Assembly (NCBI GenBank): GCA_022614695.1
Contig: JAKEIC010000077.1
Coordinates: forward strand, 1-57,437
Reading direction: 5' to 3'
Origin: Planctomycetales bacterium
GTDB taxonomy: Bacteria; Planctomycetota; JAKEIC01
Length of the DNA: 57,437 bases
Shown here piece by piece: positions 3,924 through 46,938 of this stretch (its first letter is position 1; every line of letters starts with the position of its first letter). The notes beneath the pieces were generated by a model that saw nothing but the letters and a program-made list of their open reading frames with translations, ran no database searches and was not told the DNA's origin. A program made the translations under genes and the position numbers.

Positions 3924-5405
3924 ATGGGGTCGGTGCGCCTCGGCTGGCCCAGCCTCGTCCCCGCGGCGCTCCTCGCGACTCTGCTCGCCCCACCGGGCCC
4001 GGTTCTTGGCCAGGACGCGCCCGCTCCGGACCCCGACGCGGCGCTCCTCTCCGGGTTCGAGGAGAAGCTCGGGAGGGTTCGCGCCTGGGAGGCTCAGAGG
4101 CAGGCGGTGGTCGGGGAAGAGAGGCGCAGCCTCATCGGGCTCGGCCGGGTCGCGCGGCGTCAGTTCTCGCGACTCTGGGAGGGCGAACTGGAGAGGTTCG
4201 CCTCGCCCTTCCTGGATCCCGGGGCGCTGGCCCAGGTGCGGAGGGCGGTGGCCGTCGCGGACGACACGTTCGGGAAGGTCCCGGCCGGCACTTGGACCTC
4301 CGTCTCGGAGGCGTGGAGGAGGGAGTGGGGGCTGCGCTGGGCGACGCTGATCACGGCCGCCCGCGAGTCCAGTCGGCGGGACCTCGAGGCGGTCGCCGCG
4401 CGAGAGGCGCTCCGGCGTGACCCCGAGAACGAGATCGCCCGGATGACGAGGTCGCGGCTGTTCCCGGACTGGCGACGCGAACACGAGTCGAGGGGGCTGG
4501 TCTACGACGACCGCGCAGGATGGGTCCCCCGGGGGGATACGGGGAGGCTCGACGCGGGGCTCCTGCCGTTCCTGGACGGATGGCACCCCGCGGAGAAGGT
4601 CGAGGAGCGCCGCCGCCTCTGGCAGAACGCGTGGGAAGTTCCGTGGTCCTTCTGGAGGATCCGGACGAACCTGCCCGCGCGCGACATCCGCCCCATCGGC
4701 CAGCTCCTCGACATGACCTGGGGCTGGGCGATGGAGAACGTCTCGGGTCACTTCTCCTTGGACGTGCGAGGCGAGGTCCGTGTCCTCGTGTTCGCGAAAC
4801 GCGAGGACTACGACGAGCACGCCCGCGTCTGGCATCGTACCTACGAGAAGTCGCTGAAGAAGGTGGGGGGGTTCTTCTCCCTGGAGGATCGGGCGGCGCA
4901 CGCCCTCTGTGAGGAGGGAGCTCGCGATGACAGGATGCCGCACGTGATCCCACACGAGGCGGCTCACGCGCTCCTGGCGGTCTCGGAGCCACACGGCGGC
5001 CGGTCGGGCGTGGACGCGGGGGCACTCCTCGCCGAGGCGATCGCGATCCACGCGGAGTTCTGCGGCACGGCGCCGCCCGGGTTCGGGGCTCGCCGGCTTC
5101 GGGCCGCCGCTGGCTGGCTCCCCCGCGTGCAGAAGCCGAGGAGCCTCGCGGCACTCCTTGCCGTCCGGAATGCAGACCTGTACGGGTCGTCGGCATCGGA
5201 GTTCTACCCGCAAGGCGCCGCCCTGGCGGGGTTCTTCATGGAGTCGGGAGACCTGCGCCGTCGGGAGGCTTTCCTCGAGTCCTTGCTCGCGATGTACCGC
5301 GGGACGTGGCAGCCACGGCTGCTCCCGAAGCTCCTGGGGCGATCCCCCGAGGAGATGGAAGGCGATTGGTCCGCCTGGCTCGCGGCCGCGAACGGGGGCG
5401 ACTGA
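3924..5405 (+). CDS. Secreted hypothetical protein with a zincin-like HExxH motif (DUF1570 / peptidase-MA-like)
   Basis: N-terminal signal-like segment MGSVRLGWPSLVPAALLATLLAPPGPVLGQ. It also has RVLVFAKREDYDEHARV ... VIPHEAAHALLAV ... LLAEAIAIHAEF, an arrangement resembling DUF1570-type proteins. Assigned from memory of the family, not from a search. Confidence 0.55.
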   Translation: MGSVRLGWPSLVPAALLATLLAPPGPVLGQDAPAPDPDAALLSGFEEKLGRVRAWEAQRQAVVGEERRSLIGLGRVARRQFSRLWEGELERFASPFLDPGALAQVRRAVAVADDTFGKVPAGTWTSVSEAWRREWGLRWATLITAARESSRRDLEAVAAREALRRDPENEIARMTRSRLFPDWRREHESRGLVYDDRAGWVPRGDTGRLDAGLLPFLDGWHPAEKVEERRRLWQNAWEVPWSFWRIRTNLPARDIRPIGQLLDMTWGWAMENVSGHFSLDVRGEVRVLVFAKREDYDEHARVWHRTYEKSLKKVGGFFSLEDRAAHALCEEGARDDRMPHVIPHEAAHALLAVSEPHGGRSGVDAGALLAEAIAIHAEFCGTAPPGFGARRLRAAAGWLPRVQKPRSLAALLAVRNADLYGSSASEFYPQGAALAGFFMESGDLRRREAFLESLLAMYRGTWQPRLLPKLLGRSPEEMEGDWSAWLAAANGGD

Positions 5406-5435: not shown

Positions 5436-7850
5436 GGCCCCTACGAGGTCCTCGGGAAGCTCGGCCGCGGCGGGTTCGCGGTCGTCTACCGGGCGCGACA
5501 CGTCGAGACGGGACGCGAGGTCGCCCTGAAGGTCCTCGACCGTGAGCGCGGCGCGATCGGGCCCGACGCGCTCCTGCGGTTCCGGCGTGAGATCGAGGCG
5601 GCGCGGGCCCTCGACCACCCGGGGATCGTCCGCGTTGTGGACGCGGAATTCGGTTCACGGTTCACCGCTCACAGTGAACTCGTGAACCGTGAACTGCAAT
5701 CTCCCTGGGTCGCGCTCGAACTCGTCGAGGGCGAGGCGCTCTGGTGCGTCCTCCAGCGCGAGGTCCTCCCGTGGCGCCGCGCGGTCGAGATCGCCCGGGA
5801 CCTCGCCGACGCCCTCGCCCACGCCCACGCGCGGGGGATCCTCCACCGGGACGTGAAGCCTGGCAACATCCTCGTCGGCCGCAAGTGGGGCGACCAGGAT
5901 GTTGCCCATGGGGCCCCTAGGAACGCACGAAGCGCATTCCTCACCGACTTCGGCCTCGCCCGGCTCGCCTCGACCGGCTCGCGGCTCACGCGCACCGGCG
6001 AGGCCCTCGGGACGCCTCACTACATGTCTCCCGAGCAGGCCCGGGGAGAGACACGGACTCTCACGCCGGCTACCGACATCTGGTCCGTCGGCGCGGTGCT
6101 CTACGAGATGCTCGCGGGGCGGCCGCCTTTCGAGGCCGATTCCCCCCCCGAGATCCTCGAGAAGGTCGTCCGCTCGGAGCCGATCGCGATCCGCCGCCTG
6201 CGGCCCGACGCTCCCGAGGGCCTCGACCGCGTCGTGAGGGCCTGTCTCGGGAAGCGGCCGCGGGCCCGGTACCGAGATGCGACGGCGCTCCGGGACGACC
6301 TGGACCGGGTCCGGATCGGCGAGCCCCCGCTCGCCCGCCTCCCGCGCTCGCGACTCGTCGTCATGCCGGCGGCCCTCGTCCTCGCGGCCGGCGCGGTCGT
6401 GGCCGTCCTTTCCCTGCGGCCCCTCCGGCCGCTCACTCGGGCCGATGCGACTCCGCCTCGCGGCTCCCCGGCCGGAACGGAGGCCGAGGCCCTCGCCTCG
6501 CGCGCCCGCGACATCCGATCCTCGGACCCCGGTCGGGCCGAGGAGCTCCTGGCGCGCGCCCTCGAGGCGAAGCCGGAGCGGGACGACTGGCGGGTCGAGA
6601 GGGGGCTGTTGCTCTGGACCCTGGGCAGGAACCTGGAAGCGCGGCTGGCCTGGGAACGCGTGCCCGCGCCGAGCCCCGCGCGGCCCGTGGCGCGGCTCTT
6701 CCTGGGCCTGGAGTCGTTCTTCCGACTCGACCGGGAGGGGACGATCCGGGAACTCGAGCCTCTCGCCGGCTCCGGCACCCGTGAGGCGCGTCTCGCGGGG
6801 GCCGCGATCGCGGCCTTGGCAGGTCGCTGGGAGGACGCCCGGCAAGGCCTCCGCGGGGAGGAGGGGTGGGAGGCCGCTCTGATCCGAGCCTCCGTGGAAA
6901 CCTCGGACCCGGGAGGAGACGACTCGCTCGCCGCGCGGGAGTACGGAAGGGCGCTCGACGAGGGGATCCAGTTCTCGTGGGCGTACAGCAATCTCGGACT
7001 CGCGCGCCAGGCCCAAGGCGACCTGGCGGGCGCCATCCGGGACTACGAAACCGCCCTCCGAATCAACCCGCGGAGCGCCGAGGCCTACGCGAATCTCGGC
7101 GACGCTCGCCGGGCCCAGGGCGACCTGACGGCGGCGATCCGGGACCTCAGCGCGGCCCTCGATCTCAACCCACGCCTCGCGCAGGCCTACGGCAATCGAG
7201 GCCTCGTCCGCCAGAAACAAGGCGACCTCGCCGGGGCCATCCGGGATTTCGAGACCGTGATCGAGCTCGACCCGCGGGACGAGAAGGCGTACACACATCG
7301 CGGGCACGCTCGCCGGCTCCTCGGGGACCTCGCCGGCGCCCTCCGCGACTACGACGCCGCCCTGGAGATCAACCCCGGGCTCGCGGAGGTCTACTTCGAC
7401 CGGGGCGCCCTCCGCGAGCTCCAAGGCGATGGGACCGGGGCGGTCCGGGACTTCGACACCGCGATCGAGAAGGACCCGCGGCACGCTCAGGCGTACTATG
7501 GCCGGGGCATCGTGCGACAGGCCCGAGGCGACGTGGTTGGGGCGATCGGGGACTACGACGCCGCGATCGCGATCACCCCGCGATTCGCGGAAGCCCGGAC
7601 CAACCGCGGGATCCTCCGGAAGTCCCAGGGGGACCTGGCGGGAGCCATGCTCGATTTCGAGGCTGCGCTCGAGGCCAACCCCCGGCTCGGGGAGGCGTAC
7701 TTCAGTCGCGGCATCGCGCGCCGCGAGCTCGGCGACCTCGCCGGCGCGATCGCCGACTTCGAGAGGGCCCTGGAAGTCTCCCCGCCGGGGTGGCGCCACC
7801 GCGGGAGCACGGAGAGCCACCTGGCCGCCGCCCGCGCGGCGGGACGTTGA
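5436..7850 (+). CDS. K1: receptor Ser/Thr kinase - TM - juxtamembrane module - TPR array; start codon unresolved
   Basis: Translation from nt 5436 gives GPYEVLGKLGRGGFAVVYRARH..VALKVL (Gly-loop, VAxK), HRDVKPGNILV, DFGLAR and GTPHYMSPEQ. A TM helix LVVMPAALVLAAGAVVAVLSL follows, then about nine 34-aa TPRs (GDLAGAIRDYETALRINP...). No ATG/GTG/TTG lies between the in-frame TGA at 5403-5405 and the Gly-loop. The first canonical start is GTG 5637 (the ORF-track start), which would remove the ATP-binding strands. Confidence 0.75.
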   Translation, partial: GPYEVLGKLGRGGFAVVYRARHVETGREVALKVLDRERGAIGPDALLRFRREIEAARALDHPGIVRVVDAEFGSRFTAHSELVNRELQSPWVALELVEGEALWCVLQREVLPWRRAVEIARDLADALAHAHARGILHRDVKPGNILVGRKWGDQDVAHGAPRNARSAFLTDFGLARLASTGSRLTRTGEALGTPHYMSPEQARGETRTLTPATDIWSVGAVLYEMLAGRPPFEADSPPEILEKVVRSEPIAIRRLRPDAPEGLDRVVRACLGKRPRARYRDATALRDDLDRVRIGEPPLARLPRSRLVVMPAALVLAAGAVVAVLSLRPLRPLTRADATPPRGSPAGTEAEALASRARDIRSSDPGRAEELLARALEAKPERDDWRVERGLLLWTLGRNLEARLAWERVPAPSPARPVARLFLGLESFFRLDREGTIRELEPLAGSGTREARLAGAAIAALAGRWEDARQGLRGEEGWEAALIRASVETSDPGGDDSLAAREYGRALDEGIQFSWAYSNLGLARQAQGDLAGAIRDYETALRINPRSAEAYANLGDARRAQGDLTAAIRDLSAALDLNPRLAQAYGNRGLVRQKQGDLAGAIRDFETVIELDPRDEKAYTHRGHARRLLGDLAGALRDYDAALEINPGLAEVYFDRGALRELQGDGTGAVRDFDTAIEKDPRHAQAYYGRGIVRQARGDVVGAIGDYDAAIAITPRFAEARTNRGILRKSQGDLAGAMLDFEAALEANPRLGEAYFSRGIARRELGDLAGAIADFERALEVSPPGWRHRGSTESHLAAARAAGR
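5650..5697. repeat. In-frame heptad-phased palindrome inside the K1 N-lobe
   Basis: The arms are GTTCACGGTTCAC (5653-5665) and GTGAACCGTGAAC (5682-5694), an exact 13-bp inverted repeat. The inner part is TCAC-A-GTGA. 7-nt phasing: cggttca|cggttca|ccgctca|cagtgaa|ctcgtga|accgtga. It is translated as EFGSRFTAHSELVNRELQS where K6 has only VGDEGTRL. Confidence 0.85.
5862..5941. repeat. Double-hairpin module between the catalytic loop and DFG of K1 (copy 1 of 3)
   Basis: Hairpin 1 is GGCAACATCCTCGTC (5862-5876), a 15-nt loop, then GACCAGGATGTTGCC (5892-5906), with 14 of 15 positions paired. Hairpin 2 is AGGAACGCAC-GAA-GCGCATTCCT (5919-5941), with two A.C mismatches relative to the perfect K6 copy. 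Confidence 0.9.
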
Positions 7851-20071: not shown

Positions 20072-21385
20072 GTGGCGGGCGGAGGGCTCTTCCGGGCGAC
20101 AGGCTGCCTCGCGGCGCTCCTCGCCGCGAGTCCCGCCCGCTCGCAGGCTCCTCCCGCCGCCGCGAAGGTCCTCGCGATCCGCGACGCGACCGTGATCCCG
20201 GTTTCCGGGCCGATCCTCCCCCGGGCAACGGTCCTCGTCCGCGGCGGGAAGATCGCCGAGGTGGGGCCGAACGTCGCCGTGCCGCCCGGGGCCGAGGTCC
20301 ACGACGGGCGGGGGAAGTTCCTCACGCCCGGCGTGATAGACCCCCACTCGCACATGGGGGTCTACCCGTGGCCGGGGACGCCCGCGACGTCCGACGGGAA
20401 CGAGGCCTCGGCTCCCGTCACCGCCGAGGTCCGCGCGGCCGACTCGATCCACGTGGAGGACCCGGCCTTCGCGCGGGCCCGGGCGGGGGGCGTGACCACG
20501 GTCCAGATCCTCCCCGGGAGCGCGAACCTGATCGGGGGCGAGGCGGCGATCGTGAAGCTCCGGCCCGTGCCCTCGCTCGCCGGGATGCGCTTCGAGGGCG
20601 CCCCGCGCGGCTTGAAGATGGCCGTCGGCGAGAACCCGAAGCGCGTCTACGGCGGCAGGGGGAAGACCCCCTCGACTCGCATGGGGAACGCCGCCGTGAT
20701 GAGGCAGGCTTTCATCAAGGCCCGGGAGTACCTCACGAAGTGGGACCGCTACCGGGCGAAGCTCGAGGAGCACCGTCGGAAGCTCGCCGCGGGCGAGGAG
20801 AAGGCCGAGAAGGAGCCCGAGAAGCCTGAGACCGACCTCCAGCTCGAGACCCTCGCGGCCGTCCTCCGCGGGGAGGTCCGCGTGCATATCCACTGCTACC
20901 AGACCCACGACATCGAGTTCCTCTTCCGGCTCTCGGACGAGTTCGGCTTCAAGATCGCCTGCTTCCACCACGGCCTCGAGGCCTACAAGGTCGCCGACGA
21001 GATCGCCCGCCGCGAGATCGGCGTCACCACCTGGACCGACTGGTGGGGGTTCAAGATCGAGGCCTTCGACGGGATCCCCTACGCGTTCCCGATCCTCCTC
21101 CGGAAGGGGGTCCTCGCCTCGCTCCACTCGGACTCCTCGAGCGGCGTCCAGCGCCTCTACCACGAGGCGGCGAAGGCGGTCCGCTACGGGGTCTCGGAGG
21201 AGGACGCGTTCAAGCTCTTCACGCTGAACCCCGCGAAGCAGCTCGGGATCGAGGCGCGCGTCGGGACGATCGAGCCCGGGAAGGACGCCGACCTCGCCCT
21301 CTTCGACCGCCACCCGTTCGACATGTACGCGCGGGTGGAGAAGACGTTCATTGACGGCGTGCTCGTGTACGAGAGGGGGAAGTGA
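20072..21385 (+). CDS. Secreted amidohydrolase-family protein
   Basis: Signal-like N-terminus (GCLAALLAASPARSQA). It has GVIDPHSHMGVY, a metal-binding H-x-H, and VHIHCYQTHD, in an overall imidazolonepropionase/prolidase-like amidohydrolase layout. Confidence 0.75.
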   Translation: MAGGGLFRATGCLAALLAASPARSQAPPAAAKVLAIRDATVIPVSGPILPRATVLVRGGKIAEVGPNVAVPPGAEVHDGRGKFLTPGVIDPHSHMGVYPWPGTPATSDGNEASAPVTAEVRAADSIHVEDPAFARARAGGVTTVQILPGSANLIGGEAAIVKLRPVPSLAGMRFEGAPRGLKMAVGENPKRVYGGRGKTPSTRMGNAAVMRQAFIKAREYLTKWDRYRAKLEEHRRKLAAGEEKAEKEPEKPETDLQLETLAAVLRGEVRVHIHCYQTHDIEFLFRLSDEFGFKIACFHHGLEAYKVADEIARREIGVTTWTDWWGFKIEAFDGIPYAFPILLRKGVLASLHSDSSSGVQRLYHEAAKAVRYGVSEEDAFKLFTLNPAKQLGIEARVGTIEPGKDADLALFDRHPFDMYARVEKTFIDGVLVYERGK

Positions 21386-22710
21386 TGCCGCCCCTGCGCG
21401 TGCCCGTGCTCGTCCTCGTGCTCGTGCTCGGACGACCCGGGACGGAGCCCGCCGCGCTTGCCCAGGACCCCGTCCCGGCCGCCGTCGCCATCGTCGGTGG
21501 CACGGTCCACACGGCCGCCGGCGCCCCGATCCCGAACGGGACCGTCGTGATCCGGGACGGGAAGATCGAGGCCGTGGGTCCGGGGCTCGCGCCGCCCGCC
21601 GGCGCGCGCGTCGTCCGGGCCGACGGCTGCTGGGTGACCCCGGGGTTCACAGACTCGGGGACCTCGCTCGGGCTCGTGGAGATCGAGCTGGTGGAGGCGA
21701 GCCGGGACAGCCACGAGAAGGGGGACCCGATCCAGCCTCAGCTCCGGGCCCTCGACGCATTCCACCCCGCGAGCGTCGTGATCCCGGTCACGCGCGTGAA
21801 CGGGATCACGACGGCGCTCGTGGTCCCGGACCCGAGGAACGTGCTCTCCGGCCAGAGCATGCTCGTGCACCTCGACGGCGCGGAGCCCGCGCAATACCTC
21901 GTGAAGTCTCCCGTCGCGGTCCACGCGAACCTGGGGGAGTCCTCGCGCGGCGAGGGGGACAGCGCCCCGCGCACCCGGATGGGCGAGGTGGCGCTCCTCC
22001 GGAAGGCCCTCGTGGCGGCGAGGGACTACTCCGAGAAGCGCGGCCGCTACGAGCGGAAGTTCGAGGAGTACCGCCGGAAGGTGGCCGCCGGGGAGAAGCC
22101 CGATGGCGACGAGCCCGAGCCGCCCGCGCGGGACCTGAAGAACGACGCGCTCGTGCCGGTGCTCCGCGGCGAGATCCCCCTGGTCGTCCGCGCCCGCCGC
22201 GCCTCCGACCTCCTGCTCGGCCTCGAGATCGGGCGCGAGTTCGGCGTCCGCGTGGTCCTCGACGGCGCGACCGAGGCCTGGAAGGTGGCGGCAAGGATCG
22301 CGGAGGCGAAGGTCCCCGTGATCGTCGGCCCGATCACCGAGCAGCCCGAGGACCTCGAGGCGCTCGGCGCGGTCTACGAGAACGCGGCGAGGCTCCACGC
22401 GGCCGGCGTCACGTTCGCGATCAAGACGGCCGACGCCCACAACGTGCGGAACCTCCCGTACGAGGCGGGGACGGCCGTGACATACGGCCTCCCCTGGGAC
22501 GTCGCCTTCGCGGCCGTGACGCGCCGCCCCGCCGAGATCCTCGGTGCCGACGGCCACGGCACCCTCGAGCCCGGCAAGTGCGCCGACGTCGTCGTCTGGT
22601 CCGGCGACCCGTTCCAGCCGCGGAGCGTCCCGAAGGCGGTCTTCATCCGCGGCCGCGAGATCCCCCTCACGAACAAGCAGACGGAGCTGCGGGACAAGTT
22701 CGGGAAGTAG
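21385..22710 (+). CDS. Second amidohydrolase-family protein, translationally coupled to the first
   Basis: ATG 21385 overlaps the upstream TGA (tgATG), and a G-rich SD-like gagaggggga lies upstream. It has a signal-like MPPLRVPVLVLVLVLG and is paralogous to the preceding gene, but the H-x-H position reads FTDSGT. The track start GTG 21382 is equally possible. Confidence 0.7.
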   Translation: MPPLRVPVLVLVLVLGRPGTEPAALAQDPVPAAVAIVGGTVHTAAGAPIPNGTVVIRDGKIEAVGPGLAPPAGARVVRADGCWVTPGFTDSGTSLGLVEIELVEASRDSHEKGDPIQPQLRALDAFHPASVVIPVTRVNGITTALVVPDPRNVLSGQSMLVHLDGAEPAQYLVKSPVAVHANLGESSRGEGDSAPRTRMGEVALLRKALVAARDYSEKRGRYERKFEEYRRKVAAGEKPDGDEPEPPARDLKNDALVPVLRGEIPLVVRARRASDLLLGLEIGREFGVRVVLDGATEAWKVAARIAEAKVPVIVGPITEQPEDLEALGAVYENAARLHAAGVTFAIKTADAHNVRNLPYEAGTAVTYGLPWDVAFAAVTRRPAEILGADGHGTLEPGKCADVVVWSGDPFQPRSVPKAVFIRGREIPLTNKQTELRDKFGK

Positions 22711-26665: not shown

Positions 26666-28996
26666 GTGGAGGGAGACCCCGCGACCCGGATCGGTCCCTA
26701 CGAGATCGGGGAGGAGCTCGGCCGGGGCGGGTTCGGCTCGGTCTACCGGGCGCGGGACGCCTCGACCGGCCGGGAGGTCGCGCTCAAGGTCTTGCGCGAG
26801 GATCCGGGGGACGGCGCACTCCCGGCCCGCCGGTTCCTGCGCGAGACGTCGCTCGTGCGCGAGCTCGATCACCCGGCGATCCTGAAGGTCCTCGACGCGT
26901 CCCGGGAGGACGAGAAGCCCCTCTGGGTGGCGTTCGAGCTCGTGGAGGGCGTTCCCCTCTGGAAGCTCCTGGCCGAGGAGCCCCTCGAGTGGCGCCGGGC
27001 GGCCGAGATCGCCCGCGACGTCGCCGCCGCCCTCGGACACGCCCACGCCAAGGGGATCCTGCACAGGGACGTGAAGCCGGGCAACATCCTCGTCGGCCGC
27101 AAGTGGGGTGACGAGGATGTTGCGGACGGGGCCCCCGGGAACGCGCGAAGCGCGTTCCTCACCGACTTCGGCCTCGCCCGCGTCACTGACACGCGGTCGC
27201 GCCTCACGGTGACGGGGATGGCGATCGGGACGCCGGAGTACATGTCGCCCGAGCAGGCGCGCGGAGAGACGACGTCTCTCAGCCCGGCGACCGACGTCTG
27301 GGCGGTCGGCGTGGTCCTCTACGAGATGCTCGCGGGGCGACTGCCGTTCGAGGGGGACTCCCCCGAGTCGGTGATCGAGAAGGTCGTCCTGCGGGAGCCG
27401 GTGGGCCTCCGGAAGCTCCGGTCCGGCGTGCCGGCGGGGCTCGACCGCGTCGTGCGCGCCTGTCTCGCGAAGCGGCGGGAGTCGCGCTACCCGGACGGGA
27501 CGGCTCTCCAGGAGGACTTGGACCGGGTGCTCCGGGGTGAGAACGCACGCGCCTCGCCGCCCCACCGATGGCGAGGCCCCGCGATCGCGGCGGGGATGGC
27601 GGCGCTCCTCGCCGGCGCGGTCGCCCTGCGTCCCGGCTCCCCGCGCTCGGCGTCGGCGCCCGCCGAGGCCCGGTCCGCCCCGTCCGCCGCGGAGGCCCTG
27701 GCGGGGAGGGCGGCCCGGCTCAGGGGCTCCGACCCCGTCGAAGCCGCCCGGCTCCTCCAGCAGGCGTTGGCGGAGGATCTCGGTCACCCCGACGCCGACC
27801 GCTGGCGGCTGGAACGCGGCCTCCTCCTCTGGTCGGTCGGGTACGGGGACGAGGCGCAAGGGGAGTGGCTGCGGATCGCCCCCGGCTCGCCGCTCGCGCC
27901 GCCCGCGCGGCTCTACCGCGGTCTCGAGGCGATCCTGCGGATCCGCTCGAGCGCGGAGCGGCGCCAGGCGGGGACCGCCGAGCTGGAGGCCGCGGCTTCC
28001 GGCGAGGGCCGCGAGGGGAGACTCGCGCGCGGGACGCTGGCCGCGTTCGGCCACCGTTGGGACGAGGCGCGGCGTGCCCTGCGCGACGAGACCGGATGGG
28101 AGGCCGCCCTGCTCCGAGGCTACGTCGAGGGACTCGATCCGGCCGGCGACCGCGCGGCCGTCGTTCGGGAGCTCGGGGAGGCCCTCGCGGCCGGGCTCCC
28201 CTTCTCGTGGGCCCACAACAACCGGGGCGCCGCGCTCCTCGAGCTCGGGGACGCGCCGGGCGCGCTCGCGGAATTCGACGCGGCCCTCCGGCTCCGGCCC
28301 GACGATCCCGGGGCGCTCCTCAACCGGGGCATCGCGCGCCTCGGGGCCGGAGATCCGCGCGGGGCCCGCGACGACCTGACGACTCTGCTGCGGGACTCGC
28401 CGGGCGACTCCGCCGCCTCCCACCAGCGAGGCATCGCCCGGATGAGGCTCGGCGACACGGTCGGGGCCCTCGCGGACTTCACCGCGTCGCTCGAGGGCCG
28501 GCCGCGGGACCCGGACACGCGGTACAACCGGGGGAACGCCCACGTGGCCCTGGGGGACCTGGCGGCGGCCGAGAGGGACTACACGATCGCGATCGAGGCG
28601 CGACCTGACTTCCACGGGGCGCTCACGAACCGCGGGAACGTCCGCTGGAACCAGGGGAACGAGTCGGGAGCCCTCGAGGACTACGACGCCGCGCTCCGGA
28701 TCGCGCCGGGTGAGTCACGGGCGCTCAACAACCGGGGGAGGCTGCACCTCCGGCACGGCCGTCTCGAGGCCGCCGACGCGGACTTGCGAGCCGCTCGCAA
28801 GTCGGACCCGTCGTTCCCCGATCCGCTCTACAACCTCGGGATCGTCCACCAGAAGCGGCGAGAGTGGGAGGAGGCCATCCAGCTCTTCTCGGAGTTCCTT
28901 CGCATGGCTCCGACCCATGCCGCCGCCGAGGAGGCCCGCCTCCGGCGGACCGGCTGCGAGCAGGGCGCGCAGGAGGAATCCGGGCGCCCGCGCTGA
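26666..28996 (+). CDS. K4: full-length receptor Ser/Thr kinase - TM - juxtamembrane module - TPR array
   Basis: GTG 26666 lies 11 nt after the K3 stop. The sequence reads VEGDPATRIGPYEIGEELGRGGFGSVYRARD, VALKVL, HRDVKPGNILVGRKWGDEDVADGAPGNARSAFLTDFGLAR, GTPEYMSPEQ. The TM helix is GPAIAAGMAALLAGAVAL, followed by TPRs. The track ORF start at 25037 overlaps K3 out of frame. Confidence 0.85.
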   Translation: MEGDPATRIGPYEIGEELGRGGFGSVYRARDASTGREVALKVLREDPGDGALPARRFLRETSLVRELDHPAILKVLDASREDEKPLWVAFELVEGVPLWKLLAEEPLEWRRAAEIARDVAAALGHAHAKGILHRDVKPGNILVGRKWGDEDVADGAPGNARSAFLTDFGLARVTDTRSRLTVTGMAIGTPEYMSPEQARGETTSLSPATDVWAVGVVLYEMLAGRLPFEGDSPESVIEKVVLREPVGLRKLRSGVPAGLDRVVRACLAKRRESRYPDGTALQEDLDRVLRGENARASPPHRWRGPAIAAGMAALLAGAVALRPGSPRSASAPAEARSAPSAAEALAGRAARLRGSDPVEAARLLQQALAEDLGHPDADRWRLERGLLLWSVGYGDEAQGEWLRIAPGSPLAPPARLYRGLEAILRIRSSAERRQAGTAELEAAASGEGREGRLARGTLAAFGHRWDEARRALRDETGWEAALLRGYVEGLDPAGDRAAVVRELGEALAAGLPFSWAHNNRGAALLELGDAPGALAEFDAALRLRPDDPGALLNRGIARLGAGDPRGARDDLTTLLRDSPGDSAASHQRGIARMRLGDTVGALADFTASLEGRPRDPDTRYNRGNAHVALGDLAAAERDYTIAIEARPDFHGALTNRGNVRWNQGNESGALEDYDAALRIAPGESRALNNRGRLHLRHGRLEAADADLRAARKSDPSFPDPLYNLGIVHQKRREWEEAIQLFSEFLRMAPTHAAAEEARLRRTGCEQGAQEESGRPR
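27080..27159. repeat. Double-hairpin module in K4 (copy 2 of 3)
   Basis: Hairpin 1 is GCAACATCCTCGTC (27081-27094) paired with GACGAGGATGTTGC (27110-27123), a 14-bp stem. Hairpin 2 is GGAACGCGC-GAA-GCGCGTTCC (27138-27158). I count 6 differences from the 80-nt K6 copy. Confidence 0.9.
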
Positions 28997-41173: not shown

Positions 41174-42397
41174 ATGCGCCCGTTCGGCGCGCTGATGCCG
41201 GTCGCCGAGGCGGCGGCGCGGCTCCTCACGGCGGTCCGCCCGGTGGAGGAGGCCGAGGAGGTCCCGATCGCGGACGCGGCCGGCCGGGTGGCCGCCGCGG
41301 AGCTCCTCGCCGAGGATCCGGTGCCGCGCTTCGCGCGAGCCGTGATGGACGGCTACGCGGTGCGCGCGGCCGGAGGTCTCCCCGCGGACTGGCCCTGGCG
41401 ACTCGTCCTCGCCGGGGCGGTGCACGCCGGCGAGACGCCGCCGCCGGTCCGAGCGGGCGAGTGCGTCCAGATCGCGACCGGGGCCCCGCTCCCGCCGGGG
41501 GCCGACACGGTGGTCCCCGTCGAGGAGACCCACCGCGACGGAGGCACGGTGCTCGTCCTCCGGGCGATCCCGGCCGGCGCCAACGTGTCGCCGGCCGGGG
41601 CCGACTTCCAGGAGGGGGACCTGGTCGTCGGCCAGGGCGATGCGCTCACGCCCGCGCGGGTCGGGGCCGCCGCGGCGGCAGGGGCCGCGGCGCTCCGCGT
41701 CTACCGCCGGCCGCGGGTCGCGATCTGGGGGAGCGGGGACGAGGTGAGGCCGCCGGGCGCGTCGCTCGGCCCCGGCCAGGTCCACGACGCCAACGGACCC
41801 GCGCTCGCGGCGCTCGTCCGCGCGCACGGGGGGACGCCGCTCGCGGGCGGGACCCTCCCCGACCGCGAGGACGCCGTCGAGGCCGCGCTCGGGGGCGGAT
41901 CGGGGGCCGACCTGACCGTCGTGACCGGCGGCACGTCCGTCGGGGAGCGGGACCTCGTCGGCCGGGTCCTCGGGCGGCTCGCCGAGGTGCTGTTCCACGG
42001 CCTCGCGGTCAAGCCGGGGCGGCCGACCCTCGGGGCCCGGGTCCGAGGCCAGCTCGTCCTGGGCCTCCCCGGGAACCCGACCTCATGCCTCCAGATGGCC
42101 TACGTCTTCCTCGTGCCCGCGCTGCGACGGATGGCGCGGCTCCCCGACTGGGCGCCCACGCGCGTCCGGGCGGTCCTCTCCGACTCGGTCAAGTCGCCCC
42201 CCGACAAGCACCACTACTTCTCCGTGCGGCTCGCGGCCGAGTCGGGCGCGCAGCCCCGGCTCCCCCGCGCCGTGCCGGCCTGGAAGGAGTCGGGCACGAT
42301 CTCGAGCCTCTCGCTCGCCGACGGCTGGATCGAGATCCCGGTCGGGGTCGCGACCCTGGCGGCCGGCGCCGAGGTGGAGGTGGTCCTGTTCGGATGA
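41174..42397 (+). CDS. moeA: Molybdopterin molybdenumtransferase
   Basis: It has MRPFGALMPVAEAAARLL, AVMDGYAVRA, IATGAPLPPGADTVVPVE, TGGTSVGERD, LAVKPGRPT and LPGNPTS. The track start at 39530 is a spurious upstream extension. Confidence 0.85.
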   Translation: MRPFGALMPVAEAAARLLTAVRPVEEAEEVPIADAAGRVAAAELLAEDPVPRFARAVMDGYAVRAAGGLPADWPWRLVLAGAVHAGETPPPVRAGECVQIATGAPLPPGADTVVPVEETHRDGGTVLVLRAIPAGANVSPAGADFQEGDLVVGQGDALTPARVGAAAAAGAAALRVYRRPRVAIWGSGDEVRPPGASLGPGQVHDANGPALAALVRAHGGTPLAGGTLPDREDAVEAALGGGSGADLTVVTGGTSVGERDLVGRVLGRLAEVLFHGLAVKPGRPTLGARVRGQLVLGLPGNPTSCLQMAYVFLVPALRRMARLPDWAPTRVRAVLSDSVKSPPDKHHYFSVRLAAESGAQPRLPRAVPAWKESGTISSLSLADGWIEIPVGVATLAAGAEVEVVLFG

Positions 42398-44601
42398 GCG
42401 GTCCTCCGCGCCATCTCGGGCCCTGGGAGATCCTGGAGGAGATCGGCCGCGGGGGGTACGGGGCCGTCTACCGGGCTCGCCACTCGCGCACGGGAGCGCC
42501 GGCCGCCGTGAAGCTCGTCCTCGCGGGCGACGGGGCGACTCCGGAGGAGATCCGGCGGTTCCAGCGCGAGATCGCGCTGGCGCGCACCCTCGACCACCCG
42601 GGGATCGTGAAGGTGCTCGACGTGGGGGACGAGGGCACGCGCCTCTGGTACGCGATGGAGCTTGTCGAGGGCCGGCCGCTCTACAGGCTCCTCGCCGAGG
42701 AGACCCTCCCCTGGCGCCGCGCCGTCGAGATCGCCCGCGACGTCGCCGACGCCCTCGCCCACGCCCACGCGCGGGGGGTGCTTCACCGGGACGTGAAGCC
42801 TGGCAACATCCTCGTCGGCCGCAAGTGGGGCGACGAGGATGTTGCCAATGGGGCCCCTAGGAACGCGCGAAGCGCGTTCCTAGCCGACTTCGGCCTTGCC
42901 CGGCTCTCGTCGAGCGCGTCGCGCCTCACGCGGACCGGCATGGCGCTCGGGACGCCGGAGTACATGTCCCCCGAGCAGGCGCAGGGCGAGCGGGAGAAGC
43001 TCGGGCCCCCGACCGACGTGTGGGGCGTGGGCTGCGTCCTCTACGAGATGCTCGCGGGGAGGCTCCCGTTCGAGGGCACCTCGGCCGAGCACACGATCGA
43101 GGCCGTCGTGCTCCGCGAGCCGGTCCCGCTCCGCCGGGTCCGCCCCGACGCCCCGCCCGCGCTCGAGCGGGTCGTGCGCGTCTGCCTCGCCAAGCGCCCC
43201 TCGCGCCGCTACCGCGACGCGGGCGCGCTCCGCGACGACCTGGACCGCGTGCTCCGGGGCGAGCGTCCGCAGGCGCGGCCCCCGGCACGGTGGGGGTGGA
43301 GAGTCGCGGCCGCGGCCTTCGTGGCGGCAGTCGCGTGCTGGGCTGGCTGGCTCGCCCGGGAGTCGGGCGAGCCCGAGCTGGTTGCCGAAGGGCACGGGCC
43401 GCCTGGGGCCCCGTCGAGAGCGGAGTCGCTCGCGGGCCGGGCGCGAGCTCTCCGGGCCACGGATCCTCGGGAGGCGGCGCGGCTTCTCGGAGAGGCCCTC
43501 GCGCTCGAGAGAGACCAGCACGAGTGTAGGATCGAGAGAGGGCTCTTGCTCTGGGCTGCCGGAGATGGTCCCGGGGGCCGGGCCGAGTGGCAAGGCGTCC
43601 CGGCCACTGCCGCCGCGTGGTCGCGAGCGAACTTCTACATGGCGATCCAGGCCCTGGGCCATCCGGAGGGGTTCGATTTCGACGCCCAGCTCGAAGCGAT
43701 CCAGGACGGGTCGGGCCGAGAGTCCACGATCGCCCGGGCCATCCTCGAGCTCCTGCATCGAGAGTGGGCTTCTGCGCGTGCATTGCTGCGGGGACTTCCC
43801 GGCTGGGAGGCCGCGATGGCGCGAGGATACCTCGAGACCATGGATCCGACGGGAGATCCGGCGGCCGCCGTGCGAGAGTACGGCGTAGTCCTCGCGGAAG
43901 GCCTCCACATCCCGTGGGTCCATCAGATGCGCGCCGTGTGCCGCAACCGAACCGGAGACCCCCGGGGCGCGATCGAGGACGCGGACGAGACCCTGCGCGT
44001 CCAGCCAGCGTCCCCAGAGGCCCTTGAAGTCCGGGCAAATGCGAGAGGGAGACTCGGGGACCACGTCGGCGCTCTCGAGGACGCCGAGGCTGCGCTGAAG
44101 CTGCGCCCGCGGTTCCCGGGGGCGCTCCTCACCCGCGGGACCGTGAGAGGCCTGTCGGGCGACCTGGCTGGCGCACTCCGGGACTTTGACGCGGCTCTCG
44201 ATCTGGATCCGGGCTTTGAGCACGCCCTGTTCAATCGGGCCTATGCCCGGGAGCAGAGCGGCGACCTGCAGGGTAGCCTGAGGGACTACGACGCCCTCAT
44301 CCGGGTGCGGCCTGACCACGTGGATGCCAGGCACAACCGGGGCTCACTCCGGGCCCGACTGGGAGACGACGCGGGGGCGGAGGAGGATCTCGAAGTCGCC
44401 CACCGTGCGCGACCTGACGACCCGTTGCCTTTGGGGATGCTGGGGCGTGTCCGGCGGGCCCGGCGGGACTGGGCCGGTGCCGCGGATGCCTTCCGTGGTT
44501 TCCTCCGGCTCGCGGCGAGCGATTCGCAGCGAGCCCAGGTGACCGCATGGCTGGCAGAGTGCGAGGAGAAGCTCCGCGAGGAGCGCGCGAAGGGTCGGTA
44601 G
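42394..44601 (+). CDS. K6: full-length receptor Ser/Thr kinase - TM - juxtamembrane module - TPR array
   Basis: ATG 42394 overlaps the moeA stop (ATGA). The sequence reads MSGPPRHLGPWEILEEIGRGGYGAVYRARH, AVKLVL, HRDVKPGNILVGRKWGDEDVANGAPRNARSAFLADFGLAR, GTPEYMSPEQ. The TM helix is WRVAAAAFVAAVACWAGWLA, followed by TPRs. Confidence 0.85.
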   Translation: MSGPPRHLGPWEILEEIGRGGYGAVYRARHSRTGAPAAVKLVLAGDGATPEEIRRFQREIALARTLDHPGIVKVLDVGDEGTRLWYAMELVEGRPLYRLLAEETLPWRRAVEIARDVADALAHAHARGVLHRDVKPGNILVGRKWGDEDVANGAPRNARSAFLADFGLARLSSSASRLTRTGMALGTPEYMSPEQAQGEREKLGPPTDVWGVGCVLYEMLAGRLPFEGTSAEHTIEAVVLREPVPLRRVRPDAPPALERVVRVCLAKRPSRRYRDAGALRDDLDRVLRGERPQARPPARWGWRVAAAAFVAAVACWAGWLARESGEPELVAEGHGPPGAPSRAESLAGRARALRATDPREAARLLGEALALERDQHECRIERGLLLWAAGDGPGGRAEWQGVPATAAAWSRANFYMAIQALGHPEGFDFDAQLEAIQDGSGRESTIARAILELLHREWASARALLRGLPGWEAAMARGYLETMDPTGDPAAAVREYGVVLAEGLHIPWVHQMRAVCRNRTGDPRGAIEDADETLRVQPASPEALEVRANARGRLGDHVGALEDAEAALKLRPRFPGALLTRGTVRGLSGDLAGALRDFDAALDLDPGFEHALFNRAYAREQSGDLQGSLRDYDALIRVRPDHVDARHNRGSLRARLGDDAGAEEDLEVAHRARPDDPLPLGMLGRVRRARRDWAGAADAFRGFLRLAASDSQRAQVTAWLAECEEKLREERAKGR
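42802..42881. repeat. Double-hairpin module in K6 (copy 3 of 3, both stems perfect)
   Basis: Hairpin 1 is GGCAACATCCTCGTC (42802-42816), the loop GGCCGCAAGTGGGGC, then GACGAGGATGTTGCC (42832-42846), giving 15/15 bp. Hairpin 2 is AGGAACGCGC-GAA-GCGCGTTCCT (42859-42881), giving 10/10 bp with the core GCGAAGC. Confidence 0.95.
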
Positions 44602-44613
44602 GAGCTCGATACC

Positions 44614-46938
44614 ATGGGGGCCGGGATGACCGAATCGAGCCCGTTGCCGGTGTCCGATGGGCCCGCGTCCACGCGTTTCGGCCCCTGGGAGATCCTCGAG
44701 GAGATCGGCCGCGGGGGGTACGGGGCGGTCTACCGGGCTCGCCACTCGCGGACCGGCGCGGTCGCCGCGGTCAAGGTGATCCTCGCGGGCGAGGGCGCGA
44801 CTCCCGACGAGATCCGGAGGTTCCAGCGCGAGATCGCGCTCGCGCGCACGCTCGACCACCCGGGGATCGTCCGGGTCCTGGACGTCGGGGAGGAAGGGGC
44901 GCGGGCCTGGTTCGCGATGGAATACGTCGAGGGTCGCTCCCTGTGGGCCACGCTCACGGAGGAGTCGCTCCCGTGGCGTCGGGCCGTCGAGATCGCCCGG
45001 GACGTGGCCGACGCGCTCGGCCACGCGCACGCCCGGGGCATCCTCCACCGGGACCTGAAGTCGGCGAACATCCTGATCGGGAGGAAGGTCGTCGCGGCCC
45101 CGTCCAGAGTCCAGAGTTCAGAGTCCAGAGTTGGGAGCGAAGAGCCGAACTCCGAACCCCGGACGCTGAACTCTGAACGTCCTTTCCTCACCGACTTCGG
45201 CCTCGCCCGTCTCGCGAGCACCGGATCGCGGCTGACGCGGACGGGCTTCGCCATCGGGACGCCGGACTACATGTCGCCCGAGCAGGCGCGGGGCGAGCGG
45301 GACCGGCTGGGACCGGCGACCGATGTGTGGAGCCTCGGGTGCATCCTCTACGAGATGCTCGCCGGACGCCTGCCCTTCGAGGGCTCCTCCTCGGAGCTGC
45401 TCGTCGAGGCGGTCGTCGCGAAGGACCCGACGCCGATCGGCCGCCTCCGCGAGGATCTGCCCGCGGGGCTCGATCGTGTGATCCGCGTCTGCCTCGCGAA
45501 GGACGCCTCCGACCGCTACCGCGATGGCTGGGCGCTGCGGGACGACCTCGACCGGGTGCTGCGCGGCGAGCGGCCGCTCGCCCGGCCGCCGCGGGGACCG
45601 GCGCTCGTGCGGGCCCTCGTGCTCTCCGGGTTGGTCATGGCCGCCGCCCTCTGGGGCGGCTGGCCGGCGCGCGAGGGGCCCGGTCCGGTCCCGCCGCCGG
45701 CTCCCGATGCCCCGCGGTCCCCCCCGGCGACCGGTGCGCCTCCCCGGGCCGAGGGGCTCGCCGCTCGGGCCATGGCGGTCCGGCATTCGGACCCGACCGA
45801 GGCGGCGCGACTCCTCGAGGCGGCGATCGCCTCTTCCCCGGACCACGCGAGGGGCCTCGCCTGGCGCCTCGAGCGGGGTCTCGTCCTCTGGGCCGTGGGG
45901 CGCGCGTCGGAAGCCCTCGAGGAGTGGAGGGGAATCCCGGCGGGCGCTCCGGAGGCGAAGCTCGCCCGATTCTACGAAGGGCTCGAGGCCTTCTTCGCCC
46001 TGCGAACGGCCGATTCGCTCCGCGTCCTCAGCGCCTCCGCCTCCCTCGGTGGTCGGGCCGGCAACCTCGCCGATGCGGCCGTCTTCGCGGTGGCCCGTGA
46101 CTGGCGCGCCGCCCGCGAGGTCCTGCGGGGCGAGCCCGGCTGGGAGGCCGCTCTCCTCCGGGGCTACGTGGAGCACCACGACCCCTCCGGCGATCGGGAG
46201 GCGGCAATCCGCGAGTACGGTGTCGCGCTCGCCGACGGGATCCCCTTCGGCTGGGCCTACGGCAACCGGGCCAACCTGAGACAGGAGGCCGGAGACTTGG
46301 CGGGGGCCCGGGCCGACTATGACGAGGCCCTGAGGCTCGACCCCGGGCTGGTGCTCGCCTGGAACAACCGGGCCGCCTTCCGGTTCGCACTGGGGGATCG
46401 CGAGGGGGCCCGGGCGGACGTCGAGCAGGCCCTGCGGCTCGACCCGAGCTACGGGCACGCCTGGCACAACCGCGGGCTCATGCGGGGGGAGAGCGGAGAC
46501 CTGCGGGGCGCTCTCGAGGACGCGAGCGAGGCCGTCCGGCTGGAACCCCTCTACGCGGCGGCCTGGAACAACCGCAGCCTCGCGCGCCTCAGGTTGGGGG
46601 ACGTGGACGGGGCGATCGCCGACGCGGACGAGGCCCTCCGGCTCGATCCGAGCGAGGCCAAGACCTGGATCAATCGCGGGAACGCGCGGGGGACCCGAGG
46701 GGATGTGGAGGGGGCGATCGCCGATCTCGACGAGGGGCTCCGGCGGAACCCGCGGCTCCTCGACGGCTACATGCTCCGGGCATTCGCCCGACGCTTGGGG
46801 GGCGACCTCGAAGGGGCCGCGGCGGACCTCGCGCGGGCGCTCGAGCTCGCGCCCCCCGACTGGCCCCGCCGGGCGGAGGCCGAGAGGCTCCTGAAGGGGG
46901 TCGAGGCCGCCGTCCGGGGGAGCCAGAAGGGCCGGTGA
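44614..46938 (+). CDS. K7: full-length receptor Ser/Thr kinase - TM - juxtamembrane module - TPR array, with a different insert before DFG
   Basis: ATG 44614 has AGGAG 9 nt upstream. The sequence reads FGPWEILEEIGRGGYGAVYRARH, AVKVIL, HRDLKSANILIGRKVVAAPSRVQSSESRVGSEEPNSEPRTLNSERPFLTDFGLAR, GTPDYMSPEQ. The TM helix is LVRALVLSGLVMAAALWGG, followed by TPRs. Confidence 0.85.
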   Translation: MGAGMTESSPLPVSDGPASTRFGPWEILEEIGRGGYGAVYRARHSRTGAVAAVKVILAGEGATPDEIRRFQREIALARTLDHPGIVRVLDVGEEGARAWFAMEYVEGRSLWATLTEESLPWRRAVEIARDVADALGHAHARGILHRDLKSANILIGRKVVAAPSRVQSSESRVGSEEPNSEPRTLNSERPFLTDFGLARLASTGSRLTRTGFAIGTPDYMSPEQARGERDRLGPATDVWSLGCILYEMLAGRLPFEGSSSELLVEAVVAKDPTPIGRLREDLPAGLDRVIRVCLAKDASDRYRDGWALRDDLDRVLRGERPLARPPRGPALVRALVLSGLVMAAALWGGWPAREGPGPVPPPAPDAPRSPPATGAPPRAEGLAARAMAVRHSDPTEAARLLEAAIASSPDHARGLAWRLERGLVLWAVGRASEALEEWRGIPAGAPEAKLARFYEGLEAFFALRTADSLRVLSASASLGGRAGNLADAAVFAVARDWRAAREVLRGEPGWEAALLRGYVEHHDPSGDREAAIREYGVALADGIPFGWAYGNRANLRQEAGDLAGARADYDEALRLDPGLVLAWNNRAAFRFALGDREGARADVEQALRLDPSYGHAWHNRGLMRGESGDLRGALEDASEAVRLEPLYAAAWNNRSLARLRLGDVDGAIADADEALRLDPSEAKTWINRGNARGTRGDVEGAIADLDEGLRRNPRLLDGYMLRAFARRLGGDLEGAAADLARALELAPPDWPRRAEAERLLKGVEAAVRGSQKGR
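45103..45179. repeat. Heptad-phased imperfect palindrome inside K7, at the same codon position as the K1/K4/K6 double hairpin
   Basis: The heptads read tccagag|tccagag|ttcagag|tccagag|ttgggag|cgaagag|ccgaact|ccgaacc|ccggacg|ctgaact|ctgaacg. Pairing positions i+j=90280 over 45103-45135 versus 45145-45177 gives 24 Watson-Crick pairs of 33. The centre is CGAAG (45138-45142). Confidence 0.85.

Follow-up and report, generated by a model that had tools for sequence, protein, structure and literature searches.

In-frame palindromic inserts are reportedly present in open reading frames (ORFs) of Rickettsia, where Ogata et al. are said to have described them in 2000 as Rickettsia palindromic elements (RPEs). 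Here we characterize a comparable arrangement, an in-frame double hairpin in the protein kinase gene K6 of a Planctomycetales bacterium, located on a contig of 57,437 nucleotides (nt) that was analysed over its whole length (JAKEIC010000077.1 of assembly GCA_022614695.1; hereafter the window) and that has a G+C content of 74%. A reading of the letters alone (the original prediction) had drawn attention to a module of 80 nt at 42802-42881, in which codons of a conserved kinase strand are followed by their own reverse complement; the sequence quoted there matches the contig letter for letter. The module resembles RPEs in being palindromic DNA whose translation adds a surface segment to an otherwise conserved protein, and in that the palindrome is better conserved than any function of the peptide. 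RPEs differ in being dispersed, self-contained elements of 100-150 bp that occupy many unrelated genes, whereas the module comprises 42 inserted nt at one site in one gene family and pairs with host codons.

Other described systems share particular features with this locus. Template switching is known to yield reverse-complement repeats of adjacent sequence (PMC8794818; PMC7202029), and the hairpins attributed to it (the quasi-palindromes of Ripley 1982; Loytynoja & Goldman 2017; Monttinen & Loytynoja 2022, PMC8794818) likewise arise as a perfect stem from adjacent reverse complement in one step and acquire later compensations, some of them multi-base. Those hairpins were described in RNA genes and human mutation clusters, whereas the module lies in frame inside a bacterial protein-coding gene, catalytic-core codons form one arm of each of its two hairpins, its product is a passenger peptide, and its unpaired loop bases are also conserved. 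Quasi-palindrome (QP) hot spots of E. coli, studied in thyA and lacZ reporters (PMC7202029), are similarly imperfect inverted repeats in coding DNA that are perfected by intramolecular template switching, but they are laboratory mutation events, not conserved between species, and without demonstrated long-term maintenance or spread among paralogues. The d(GCGAAGC)/GNA mini-hairpin (Hirao et al.; PMC13037366) recurs here as a C-GAA-G cap, with the GCGAAGC core in five of ten copies and a GGA (GNA) variant in the copy of P0147; in nature it is known from phage and plasmid priming sites and from promoters but not from ORFs, whereas here the cap stands atop a stem of 9-12 bp. Intragenic cis-acting RNA structures of bacteria (RNase III sites, frameshift stimulators, pause hairpins) are also stable, conserved, co-varying stem-loops within ORFs; the module differs in having no Rfam match, slippery heptamer or T-run, and its likeness to them is one of sequence. 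In the literature we found no description of an in-frame double hairpin that pairs catalytic-core codons with a translated inverted copy and is kept by compensatory change.

K6 (42394..44601, forward strand) encodes a membrane Ser/Thr kinase-TPR protein of 735 amino acids, recorded as P0121 with PF00069, PF07714 and TPR Pfams. The motifs GRGGYG, HRDVKPGN, DFG and SPEQ are all present, TPR units follow at the C-terminus, and the AlphaFold model of the kinase domain reaches a mean predicted local distance difference test (pLDDT) score of 88.7 and a predicted template modelling (pTM) score of 0.89; by motif and predicted fold the host is a eukaryotic-like Ser/Thr protein kinase (Pkinase) with a C-terminal TPR region. 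The module separates the catalytic-loop strand HRDVKPGNILV from the DFG motif, and translation bears out that it is in frame, encoding GNILVGRKWGDEDVANGAPRNARSAF between HRDVKP and LADFG. Hairpin 1 (42801..42847, forward strand) has the host beta7 codons (P)GNILVG as its left arm, a loop inside the G-R-K-W-G codons, and as its right arm the inverted copy, translated as (G)DEDVA(N). The perfect 15-nt reverse complement first reported for it (GGCAACATCCTCGTC and GACGAGGATGTTGCC) is present; its perfect arms in fact span 17 nt (42801-42817 and 42831-42847, with a spacer of 13 nt) and, allowing mismatch, become 20-nt arms that are 95% complementary. A linker (42848..42856, forward strand) with the small palindrome GGGGCCCC and the codons N-G-A-P leads to hairpin 2 (42857..42883, forward strand), where a GAA triloop separates the inverted copy (CTAGGAACGCGC, left arm) from the host beta8 codons (S)AFL (GCGCGTTCCTAG, right arm). 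Here too the stem exceeds its first description, a perfect 10 bp, since CTAGGAACGCGC-GAA-GCGCGTTCCTAG pairs perfectly over 12 bp. The core of hairpin 2, GCGAAGC, conforms to the d(GCGNAGC) mini-hairpin (GCG-N-AGC, a G...A loop closed by C-G), and the exceptional stability ascribed to d(GCGAAGC) in the original prediction agrees with published work, in which a GAA or GNA triloop closed by C-G makes a DNA mini-hairpin of extraordinary stability that occurs where replication is primed (PMC13037366). Both nucleic-acid forms of the 80 nt fold far more stably than shuffled sequences (as RNA, -55.7 kcal/mol, z -7.74; as DNA, -37.4 kcal/mol, z -9.27), and the fold stability expected of a conserved RNA element extends to the copies in the paralogous genes K4 (RNA z -6.18) and K1 (-2.87).

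A profile search retrieved the same gene family from other metagenome-assembled genomes (MAGs) of Planctomycetales, with 12 proteins bearing a module-type loop (for example, GRKGADEDVASGAPTRNTRSVF and GRKASDEDVMGGPPRNAQRAF) in which DEDVA and GRK motifs recur; other family members have loops of 38-39 (K7-type, after a further paralogue in the window), 65-74 or 16 residues, or the canonical loop. Seven further copies were obtained as DNA from GCA_973348535.1 and GCA_040961615.1, making ten copies from three related MAGs that are not independent of one another. The module is thus present in three separate assemblies, and all seven additional copies keep both hairpins, some of them eroded (hairpin 2 of P0133, hairpin 1 of P0236). 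When the ten sequences were aligned, 87.7% of cells were paired, compared with 34-52% when the partners were slid, and RNAalifold returned the same helices. Six pairs have changed on both sides (shuffle mean 2.5, with 2 of 500 shuffles reaching 6; slid controls, 1-2), involving nine cells with both-side changes, a number reached in none of 500 shuffles. For hairpin 1, the beta7 change ATC>GTC (Ile>Val) of P0142 is paired with GAT>GAC, and GGC>AGC of P0147 with GCC>GCT, the latter yielding a rare codon. Hairpin 2 shows AAC>AAT paired with GCG>GCA or GTA in three genes and GCG>ACG (Ala>Thr) paired with GCG>GTG or GTA (Ala>Val) in two, corresponding to C-G to T-A in three copies and G-C to A-T in two, with a G.U intermediate in hairpin 2 of P0129. 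Some compensatory changes are therefore non-synonymous, and across the 12 module-type proteins the residues encoded by the pairing partners are T-V in three, A-V in one, A-A in eight and T-A in none (exact test, 4/220 = 0.018). Covariation of the kind expected for conserved RNA structure thus favours both helices, modestly so with ten related sequences.

Codon usage offers a second, separate view, because the third codon position outside the module is 92% G+C. Outside the module GAT accounts for only 6.5% of Asp codons and GTT for only 2.5% of Val codons, yet arm 2 has GAT in 7 of 8 copies and GTT in 9 of 9, where the opening bases of ATC and AAC require them for pairing; beyond the module a rare codon is the majority codon in none of 134 columns with conserved amino acid. 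At conserved residues, A/T-ending codons are retained between genomes in 110 of 204 comparisons for stem codons vs 20 of 408 outside, and the closest orthologue pair, K6 and P0124 (88% nt identity), gives 6 of 9 in stems vs 0 of 14 outside. Columns with an identical A/T-ending codon in at least two genomes number 5 of 19 in stems (p = 3e-4) and, among unpaired columns of the module, 3 of 8 (p = 1e-3), vs 5 of 234 outside. The original prediction had proposed that a peptide encoded by synonymously scrambled DNA would speak for protein-level constraint only; the retention of stem codons at synonymous sites instead favours constraint on the nucleic acid. Conservation extends to unpaired positions. 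The triloop codon is CGA, CAA or GAA in nine of ten copies, its third-position A being kept across Arg, Gln and Glu; GCGAAGC occurs in K6, K4, P0124, P0129 and P0236, and GCGGAGC in P0147, while K1, P0142, P0146 and P0133 deviate. The G-run and C-run composition of the linker is the same in all ten copies, and its rare codons CCT, CAT and GGT are common to several genomes. Copying from arm to arm cannot explain such conserved unpaired nucleotides in loop and linker. The 3' half of loop 1 (42827-42830) is also G-rich and the linker (42854-42858) C-rich in all ten copies, from which a loop-linker pseudoknot may be conceived, although at 74% G+C the complementarity could be meaningless.

The encoded peptide behaves differently from the nucleotides. 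Between K6 and P0124 the module diverges by 21% in amino acids vs 7.6% for the rest of the kinase domain, and AlphaFold models the insert as an extended turn between beta7 (139-144) and beta8 (160-163), with residues 150-157 at pLDDT below 50. As we read it, the conserved DEDVA is simply what the reverse complement of the GNILV codons spells by chance. These comparisons show, at the level of predicted proteins, a peptide that drifts as a passenger while constraint falls on the nucleotides. Taken together, the compensatory pairs, the retention of rare A/T-ending codons and the faster divergence of the peptide argue that the constraint acts on nucleic acid, whichever of selection or self-maintenance drives the pairing.

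The derivation of the module can be read from its arms. Each hairpin consists of a host strand (beta7 GNILV or beta8 AFL) and an inverted copy, so that the added letters exactly reverse-complement the sequence immediately beside them over arms of 17 nt in hairpin 1 and 12 nt in hairpin 2. The spacing from N-I-L-x to DFG is 9 residues in 110 of the 120 best kinase homologues and 23 in K1, K4 and K6. P0002-P0004 and P0127 have the canonical loop, and P0001, the closest outside homologue in the first search, has an intermediate loop of 16 residues, GRKMGGPEGAARAYLTDFG, that in protein alignment lacks the inverted-arm residues GDEDVAN; relatives thus show the state before the event at the protein level, the pre-insertion state being judged from proteins only, including P0001. 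The shorter loop originally offered for comparison, LDQGGEPHLA, was located in a minus-strand kinase with its HRD motif at 19375. The anatomy fits template switching and not transposition, because the module has neither termini of its own nor a target duplication; no direct repeats were found at its borders. The inverted host codons, the 9-residue norm and the P0001 intermediate all support the fold-back (template-switch) origin first suggested, and we regard that origin as well supported by the sequence comparisons. As read from the sequence, the arm order L-M-L'...R'-R needs at least two events. In outline, fold-back or template switching at replication would have copied the GNILV and AFL codons, reverse-complemented, into the 9-residue beta7-beta8 turn, adding 14 codons and making two perfect hairpins, and gene conversion would then have spread the insert-bearing block among tandem paralogues.

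Copies within the window document this last step. K1, K4, K6 and K7 are paralogues of the same architecture, and the K1 copy (5862..5941, forward strand) and K4 copy (27080..27159, forward strand) differ from K6 at four and six positions, respectively, as first counted, with three of the four in K1 breaking stem pairs; every substitution among the window copies weakens a stem. No chance matches of the module are expected in dinucleotide shuffles, and a search of the window at up to three mismatches yields three copies only. Among K1, K4 and K6 the module is 89-94% identical vs 72-73% for the remainder of the kinase domain, but it lies inside a high-identity block of about 240 nt that begins some 40 codons upstream. 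The claim that conservation of the module at least equals that of the flanking catalytic-loop codons proved only roughly true: HRDVKPGNILVGRK is 95-100% identical among the three genes and the insert-specific part 81-94%, like the 40 codons upstream, so that the module does not rise above its hairpin-free upstream flank. In sliding comparisons K7, the adjacent tandem gene, is the best match of K6 over the N-lobe (81-89%), and K1 (94-100%), followed by K4, is the best over approximately 42744-42927. This block of about 200 nt with the module inside (42744..42927, forward strand), in which K6 is K1/K4-like and not K7-like, is a gene-conversion tract: in the best K6 segment 45 of 48 informative sites are K1-like, and with the insert excluded the ratio of K1-like to K7-like sites is 23:10 in the block vs 60:114 elsewhere (Fisher p = 2e-4). 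These patterns show K6 to be a gene-conversion mosaic, as judged from sequence, with the insert-bearing block moving between tandem paralogues, and gene conversion therefore largely explains why K1, K4 and K6 all retain the module. The argument from retention in paralogues to a nucleic-acid-level role is accordingly weakened, gene conversion being at work and no excess over the upstream flank being found, whereas its conclusion is upheld by the copies in two other genomes; from the window copies alone we would have called the module a decaying relic. Elsewhere in K6, the N-lobe (42394-42700) is 81-89% identical to that of K7 (44680-45000), a similarity confined to this segment and ending near the beta4-beta5 loop, which suggests a second gene-conversion tract among the paralogues.

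We favour, with a probability of about one half, the reading that the module represents a structured nucleic-acid element, specific to the lineage and set in frame in kinase coding sequence, and that selection on sense-strand structure keeps it. Of the two forms that such selection might take, a role in the mRNA is possible, and one of the DNA strand is rather doubtful. The hairpins would act on the sense strand, most probably, if tentatively, in the mRNA, where a very stable double stem-loop of about -55 kcal/mol, immediately downstream of the codons of the catalytic loop, could reduce expression of the kinase subfamily or set its timing, whether by obstructing elongation, by serving as a site for RNase III-type processing or by determining stability; action on the sense strand is weakly hinted at by the excess of G.U over A.C cells (12 vs 4 in the ten copies). 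Pairs would be kept by compensatory changes, which template-switch correction of the quasi-palindrome probably supplies, and the rare A/T-ending codons in the stems and GAA loop would resist the 92% G+C pressure at third positions. Stated more fully, and still as a tentative proposal, the hairpins may be a selected cis-element shared by the kinase subfamily, of which the translated loop is only the footprint. It could take the form of an mRNA double stem-loop that places paralogous sensor kinases under common post-transcriptional control by processing or pausing, or of a single-stranded DNA (ssDNA) or cruciform signal for gene conversion at the N-lobe/C-lobe boundary, giving rise to mosaic and N-lobe-less paralogues; in both versions the nucleic-acid structure is built from, and still base-paired to, catalytic-core codons.

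Several points weigh against this reading. The RNA role is itself inferred; the separate compensatory events may number only 4-6, and pair 6-40 in P0236 looks fortuitous; and the G.U:A.C asymmetry is not significant when counted as events. Some copies are decaying (three mismatches in K1, eroded hairpin 2 in P0133 and hairpin 1 in P0236), so that some paralogues would do without any such function. As a stability motif the GAA triloop is known from DNA and not from RNA (PMC13037366), and template-switch correction can make compensatory changes without selection (PMC8794818, PMC7202029). The unrelated inserts of 16, 38-39 and 65-74 residues in the same loop, with other palindromes in the beta4-beta5 loop, are more suggestive of a mutational hot spot than of design. 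Among known classes of RNA element, a search of the whole window against Rfam at the gathering threshold gave zero matches, and scans of 42300-45300 on both strands found neither terminator-like sites (a GC-rich hairpin with a T-run) nor promoters. An intrinsic terminator is ruled out, as there is no T-run; a stimulator of -1 frameshifting likewise, since neither GAC GTG AAG CCT before hairpin 1 nor AAT GGG GCC CCT before hairpin 2 fits the slippery heptamer X XXY YYZ, which should lie 5-9 nt ahead of the structure; and frameshifting or translational bypass was dropped altogether, there being no slippery site and the out-of-frame TAGs not being conserved.

The same pairing could be produced without any cellular function, by a quasi-palindrome that maintains itself: the arm pinned by the protein (GNILV, AFL) would be re-copied into the other arm by intramolecular template switching, and gene conversion would spread the block. 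We consider this possible. The process is seen at work here in the fold-back origin itself, mutations concentrate at QP sites and make the repeat more perfect (PMC7202029), and template switching can create and maintain stems with multi-base compensations, as has been proposed for RNA stems (PMC8794818); the adjacent double compensation in P0124, AACGCGC>AATACGC with GCGCGTT>GCGTATT, is of this type. Further palindromic in-frame inserts in the family (in K7 and in the beta4-beta5 loops of K1 and P0142), a 40-nt coding palindrome in an unrelated amidohydrolase-like gene, loop lengths at the site of 9, 16, 23-24, 38-39 and 65-74 residues, and the decaying stems of K1, P0133 and P0236 all accord with a mutational process, and a rough estimate from the 12% of unpaired cells indicates that correction at about 15-fold the per-site mutation rate would suffice. 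Arm-to-arm copying, however, cannot hold unpaired bases, yet the third-position A of the triloop persists in nine of ten copies and unpaired module columns share rare codons between genomes (the 3 of 8 vs 5 of 234 noted above); moreover, palindromes are expected to be broken or converted away, so that persistence in three genomes and many paralogues demands a high correction rate. A related proposal, which we think unlikely, makes the module a DNA recombination element, with ssDNA hairpins or a cruciform seeded by GCGAAGC stalling replication or being cut, and so initiating gene conversion and rearrangement at the N-lobe/C-lobe boundary. Consistent with it, the module lies at the centre of the conversion tract, the N-lobe tract of K6 and K7 stops close to the other palindrome site in the beta4-beta5 loop, N-lobe-less paralogues begin at or just before beta8/DFG, and the GCGAAGC core is a very stable DNA mini-hairpin (PMC13037366). 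Arms of 12-17 bp are nevertheless generally considered short for cruciform extrusion in vivo, the N-lobe-less genes are diverged (about 47% identical to K6) and could stem from one old truncation, and breakage normally converts the palindrome-bearing copy and should therefore remove the element. The excess of G.U over A.C, if real, would argue for one strand only, and no recombinase or nuclease is associated with the module, the three integrases beside P0133 (locus L086) appearing incidental.

The remaining explanations fare much worse. Constraint at the protein level only, with a functional beta7-beta8 loop peptide and palindromes as a frozen accident, might account for the recurrence of DEDVA and GRK in the 12 module-type proteins and for an insert that is always in frame, but it is largely refuted, and very improbable, in that rare GAT and GTT are kept exactly at pairing positions, synonymous retention is concentrated in the stems (110/204 vs 20/408), the non-synonymous changes fall in base-pairing partners (3 T-V, 1 A-V, 8 A-A, 0 T-A), and the module peptide diverges faster than its domain and is modelled at low confidence in mid-insert. 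To an equally slight degree can one credit the in-frame insertion of a small mobile palindromic element, whether RPE, miniature inverted-repeat transposable element (MITE) or of the repetitive extragenic palindromic (REP) type. Several different palindromic inserts do occur in this gene family, and in-frame palindromic inserts in ORFs are said to be known from Rickettsia; however, one arm of each hairpin consists of conserved host codons, leaving the element no termini of its own, and target-site duplications are lacking. Across the 57 kb window and 165 kb of related loci, copies occur only at the same site in the same gene family, and a covariance model applied to the sense strand of these 222 kb (the window and 21 loci) retrieved above 20 bits only the ten kinase copies. 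The original prediction that this is not a foreign mobile element is thereby strengthened, the module not being dispersed. Two metagenome scans, with back-translated GRKWGD[EQ]DVA and N[IV]L[VL]GRKxxDEDV, gave 0 matches each in a collection from which the lineage is absent. A genome-contig scan with the kinase alignment, using generic motif patterns, gave, among the matches listed, only kinases of at most 44% identity from other phyla, and a 72-residue profile of the module region returned from protein databases only short unrelated kinase fragments, missing even known members. An assembly or amplification artefact, such as a chimeric fold-back read, has a negligible chance of being correct. 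The source is a MAG, and fold-back chimeras are generally known to arise in amplified DNA, but the window holds three diverged in-frame copies, seven more come from GCA_973348535.1 and GCA_040961615.1, and database records of the K6 and K4 proteins come from two contigs; the independent assemblies refute it.

The module is one of several inserts in these kinases. K7 carries at the same beta7-beta8 site a different, longer and imperfect hairpin (45109..45178, forward strand) within a 38-residue loop, its arms being made of 7-nt repeats GTCCAGA and their complement (29-nt arms, 83% complementary; RNA z -2.4 to -3.2). Relative to its syntenic orthologue P0127, which is 74% identical and has the canonical loop of 9 residues, K7 has a clean present/absent insert of 29 amino acids. 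Two kinases of another MAG have K7-type inserts of 39 residues with different arm sequences. This comparison at the K7 site covered 45070-45185 of the window (K7), L083 3232-3372 and 5598-5738, and L084 12882. P0131, P0140, P0132 and P0001 have inserts of the form GRK.GG...APVGAYL[ST]DFG with 16, 23, 65 and 74 residues, the long ones being rich in SAER, SRAER and SERSER-like repeats; from such sequences the beta7-beta8 loop appears to have grown stepwise in several directions. Inserts at the same site in the distant kinases P0010 and P0093 contained no convincing palindromes.

In K1 a second in-frame palindromic insert (5646..5701, forward strand) adds about 13 codons to the beta4-beta5 loop and encodes AEFGSRFTAHSELVNRELQS; it is low in G+C, and its arms consist of GGTTCAC and GTGAAC repeats (RNA z -3.4 to -3.8). 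P0142 (L083, approximately 976-1014) has a longer insert at the same beta4-beta5 site, sharing the GGTTCAC/GTGAAC motifs but with a different peptide. The 9-mer GTGAACTGC forms the 3' end of both inserts (5689-5697 in K1), before host sequence resumes, and is also the first nine bases of the N-lobe-less gene of P0184 (29007-29015), where the related P0170 and P0172 start MNC and MDC. A shared GAAC/GTTC motif linking all inserts was considered and dropped, since its clusters are confined to the insert sites and to a TPR stretch rich in Asn. Upstream of its G-loop K1 has no in-frame ATG, GTG or TTG, its frame being continuous with ORF 3924-5405 across a single TGA (5403-5405), and in the database the gene is called only from GTG 5637, already within the kinase domain; read-through, fusion, a pseudogene or a sequencing error are all possible explanations of this 5' end.

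Three tandem paralogues in the window have neither N-lobe nor catalytic loop (DFG at 22795 and 24741; P0184, 29007-30863). One start reads GTG-AAC-TGC-TCC-CTC-ACC-GAC-TTC-GGC, directly after the K4 stop codon, and dozens of proteins from related MAGs (within P0151-P0225) start alike (MSAFLADFG, MNCYLTDFG), some keeping remnants of the K7-type insert. These genes may form a subfamily of half-kinases, or they may have been split at the insert. P0133 (L086 5275-9870) is a shortened module-bearing kinase of 530 amino acids with no TPR Pfam on record, directly downstream of three tyrosine-recombinase (Phage_integrase) genes and of helix-turn-helix (HTH) genes, which look like a mobile element inserted alongside.

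Outside the kinases, an amidohydrolase-like gene (21382-22710) contains at 21774-21813 the 40-nt near-perfect palindrome mentioned above (20-nt arms, 95%, no spacer), which encodes SVVIPVTR followed by VNGITT; the G-I-T-T stretch of its right half we take to be a usual motif of the amidohydrolase family, and the palindrome is possibly another template-switch conversion. A giant ORF of about 2,900 amino acids with IPT/TIG-like repeats has perfect hairpins at 9700-9727 (12 bp) and 13549-13597 (17 bp), which derive from self-complementary runs of Thr and Val codons (ATAT..VAVA, TVTV..TVTV). The window as a whole has seven hairpins with perfect arms of at least 12 nt vs 0.7 expected; a general excess of coding hairpins was nonetheless dropped as evidence of fold-back, because two of the three non-kinase cases are these Thr/Val runs.

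If the constraint is real selection, the module would be a clear natural case of a protein segment that exists because of the nucleic-acid structure encoding it, its fourteen codons being translated as a passenger loop and owing their sequence to pairing with invariant codons of the catalytic core. If it is mutational, the locus would instead be a bacterial coding-region example of template switching that both creates hairpins and keeps them paired, and a caution against reading covariation as proof of function. The locus is suited to separating the two, as selection on the protein fixes one arm and leaves the other free, and loop, paired bases and peptide can be recoded independently. For the kinase family itself, these genes suggest that loops of a conserved enzyme can grow, here from 9 to 16, 23, 39 and 74 residues, by fold-back copying, and that the inserts can then spread among paralogues by gene conversion.

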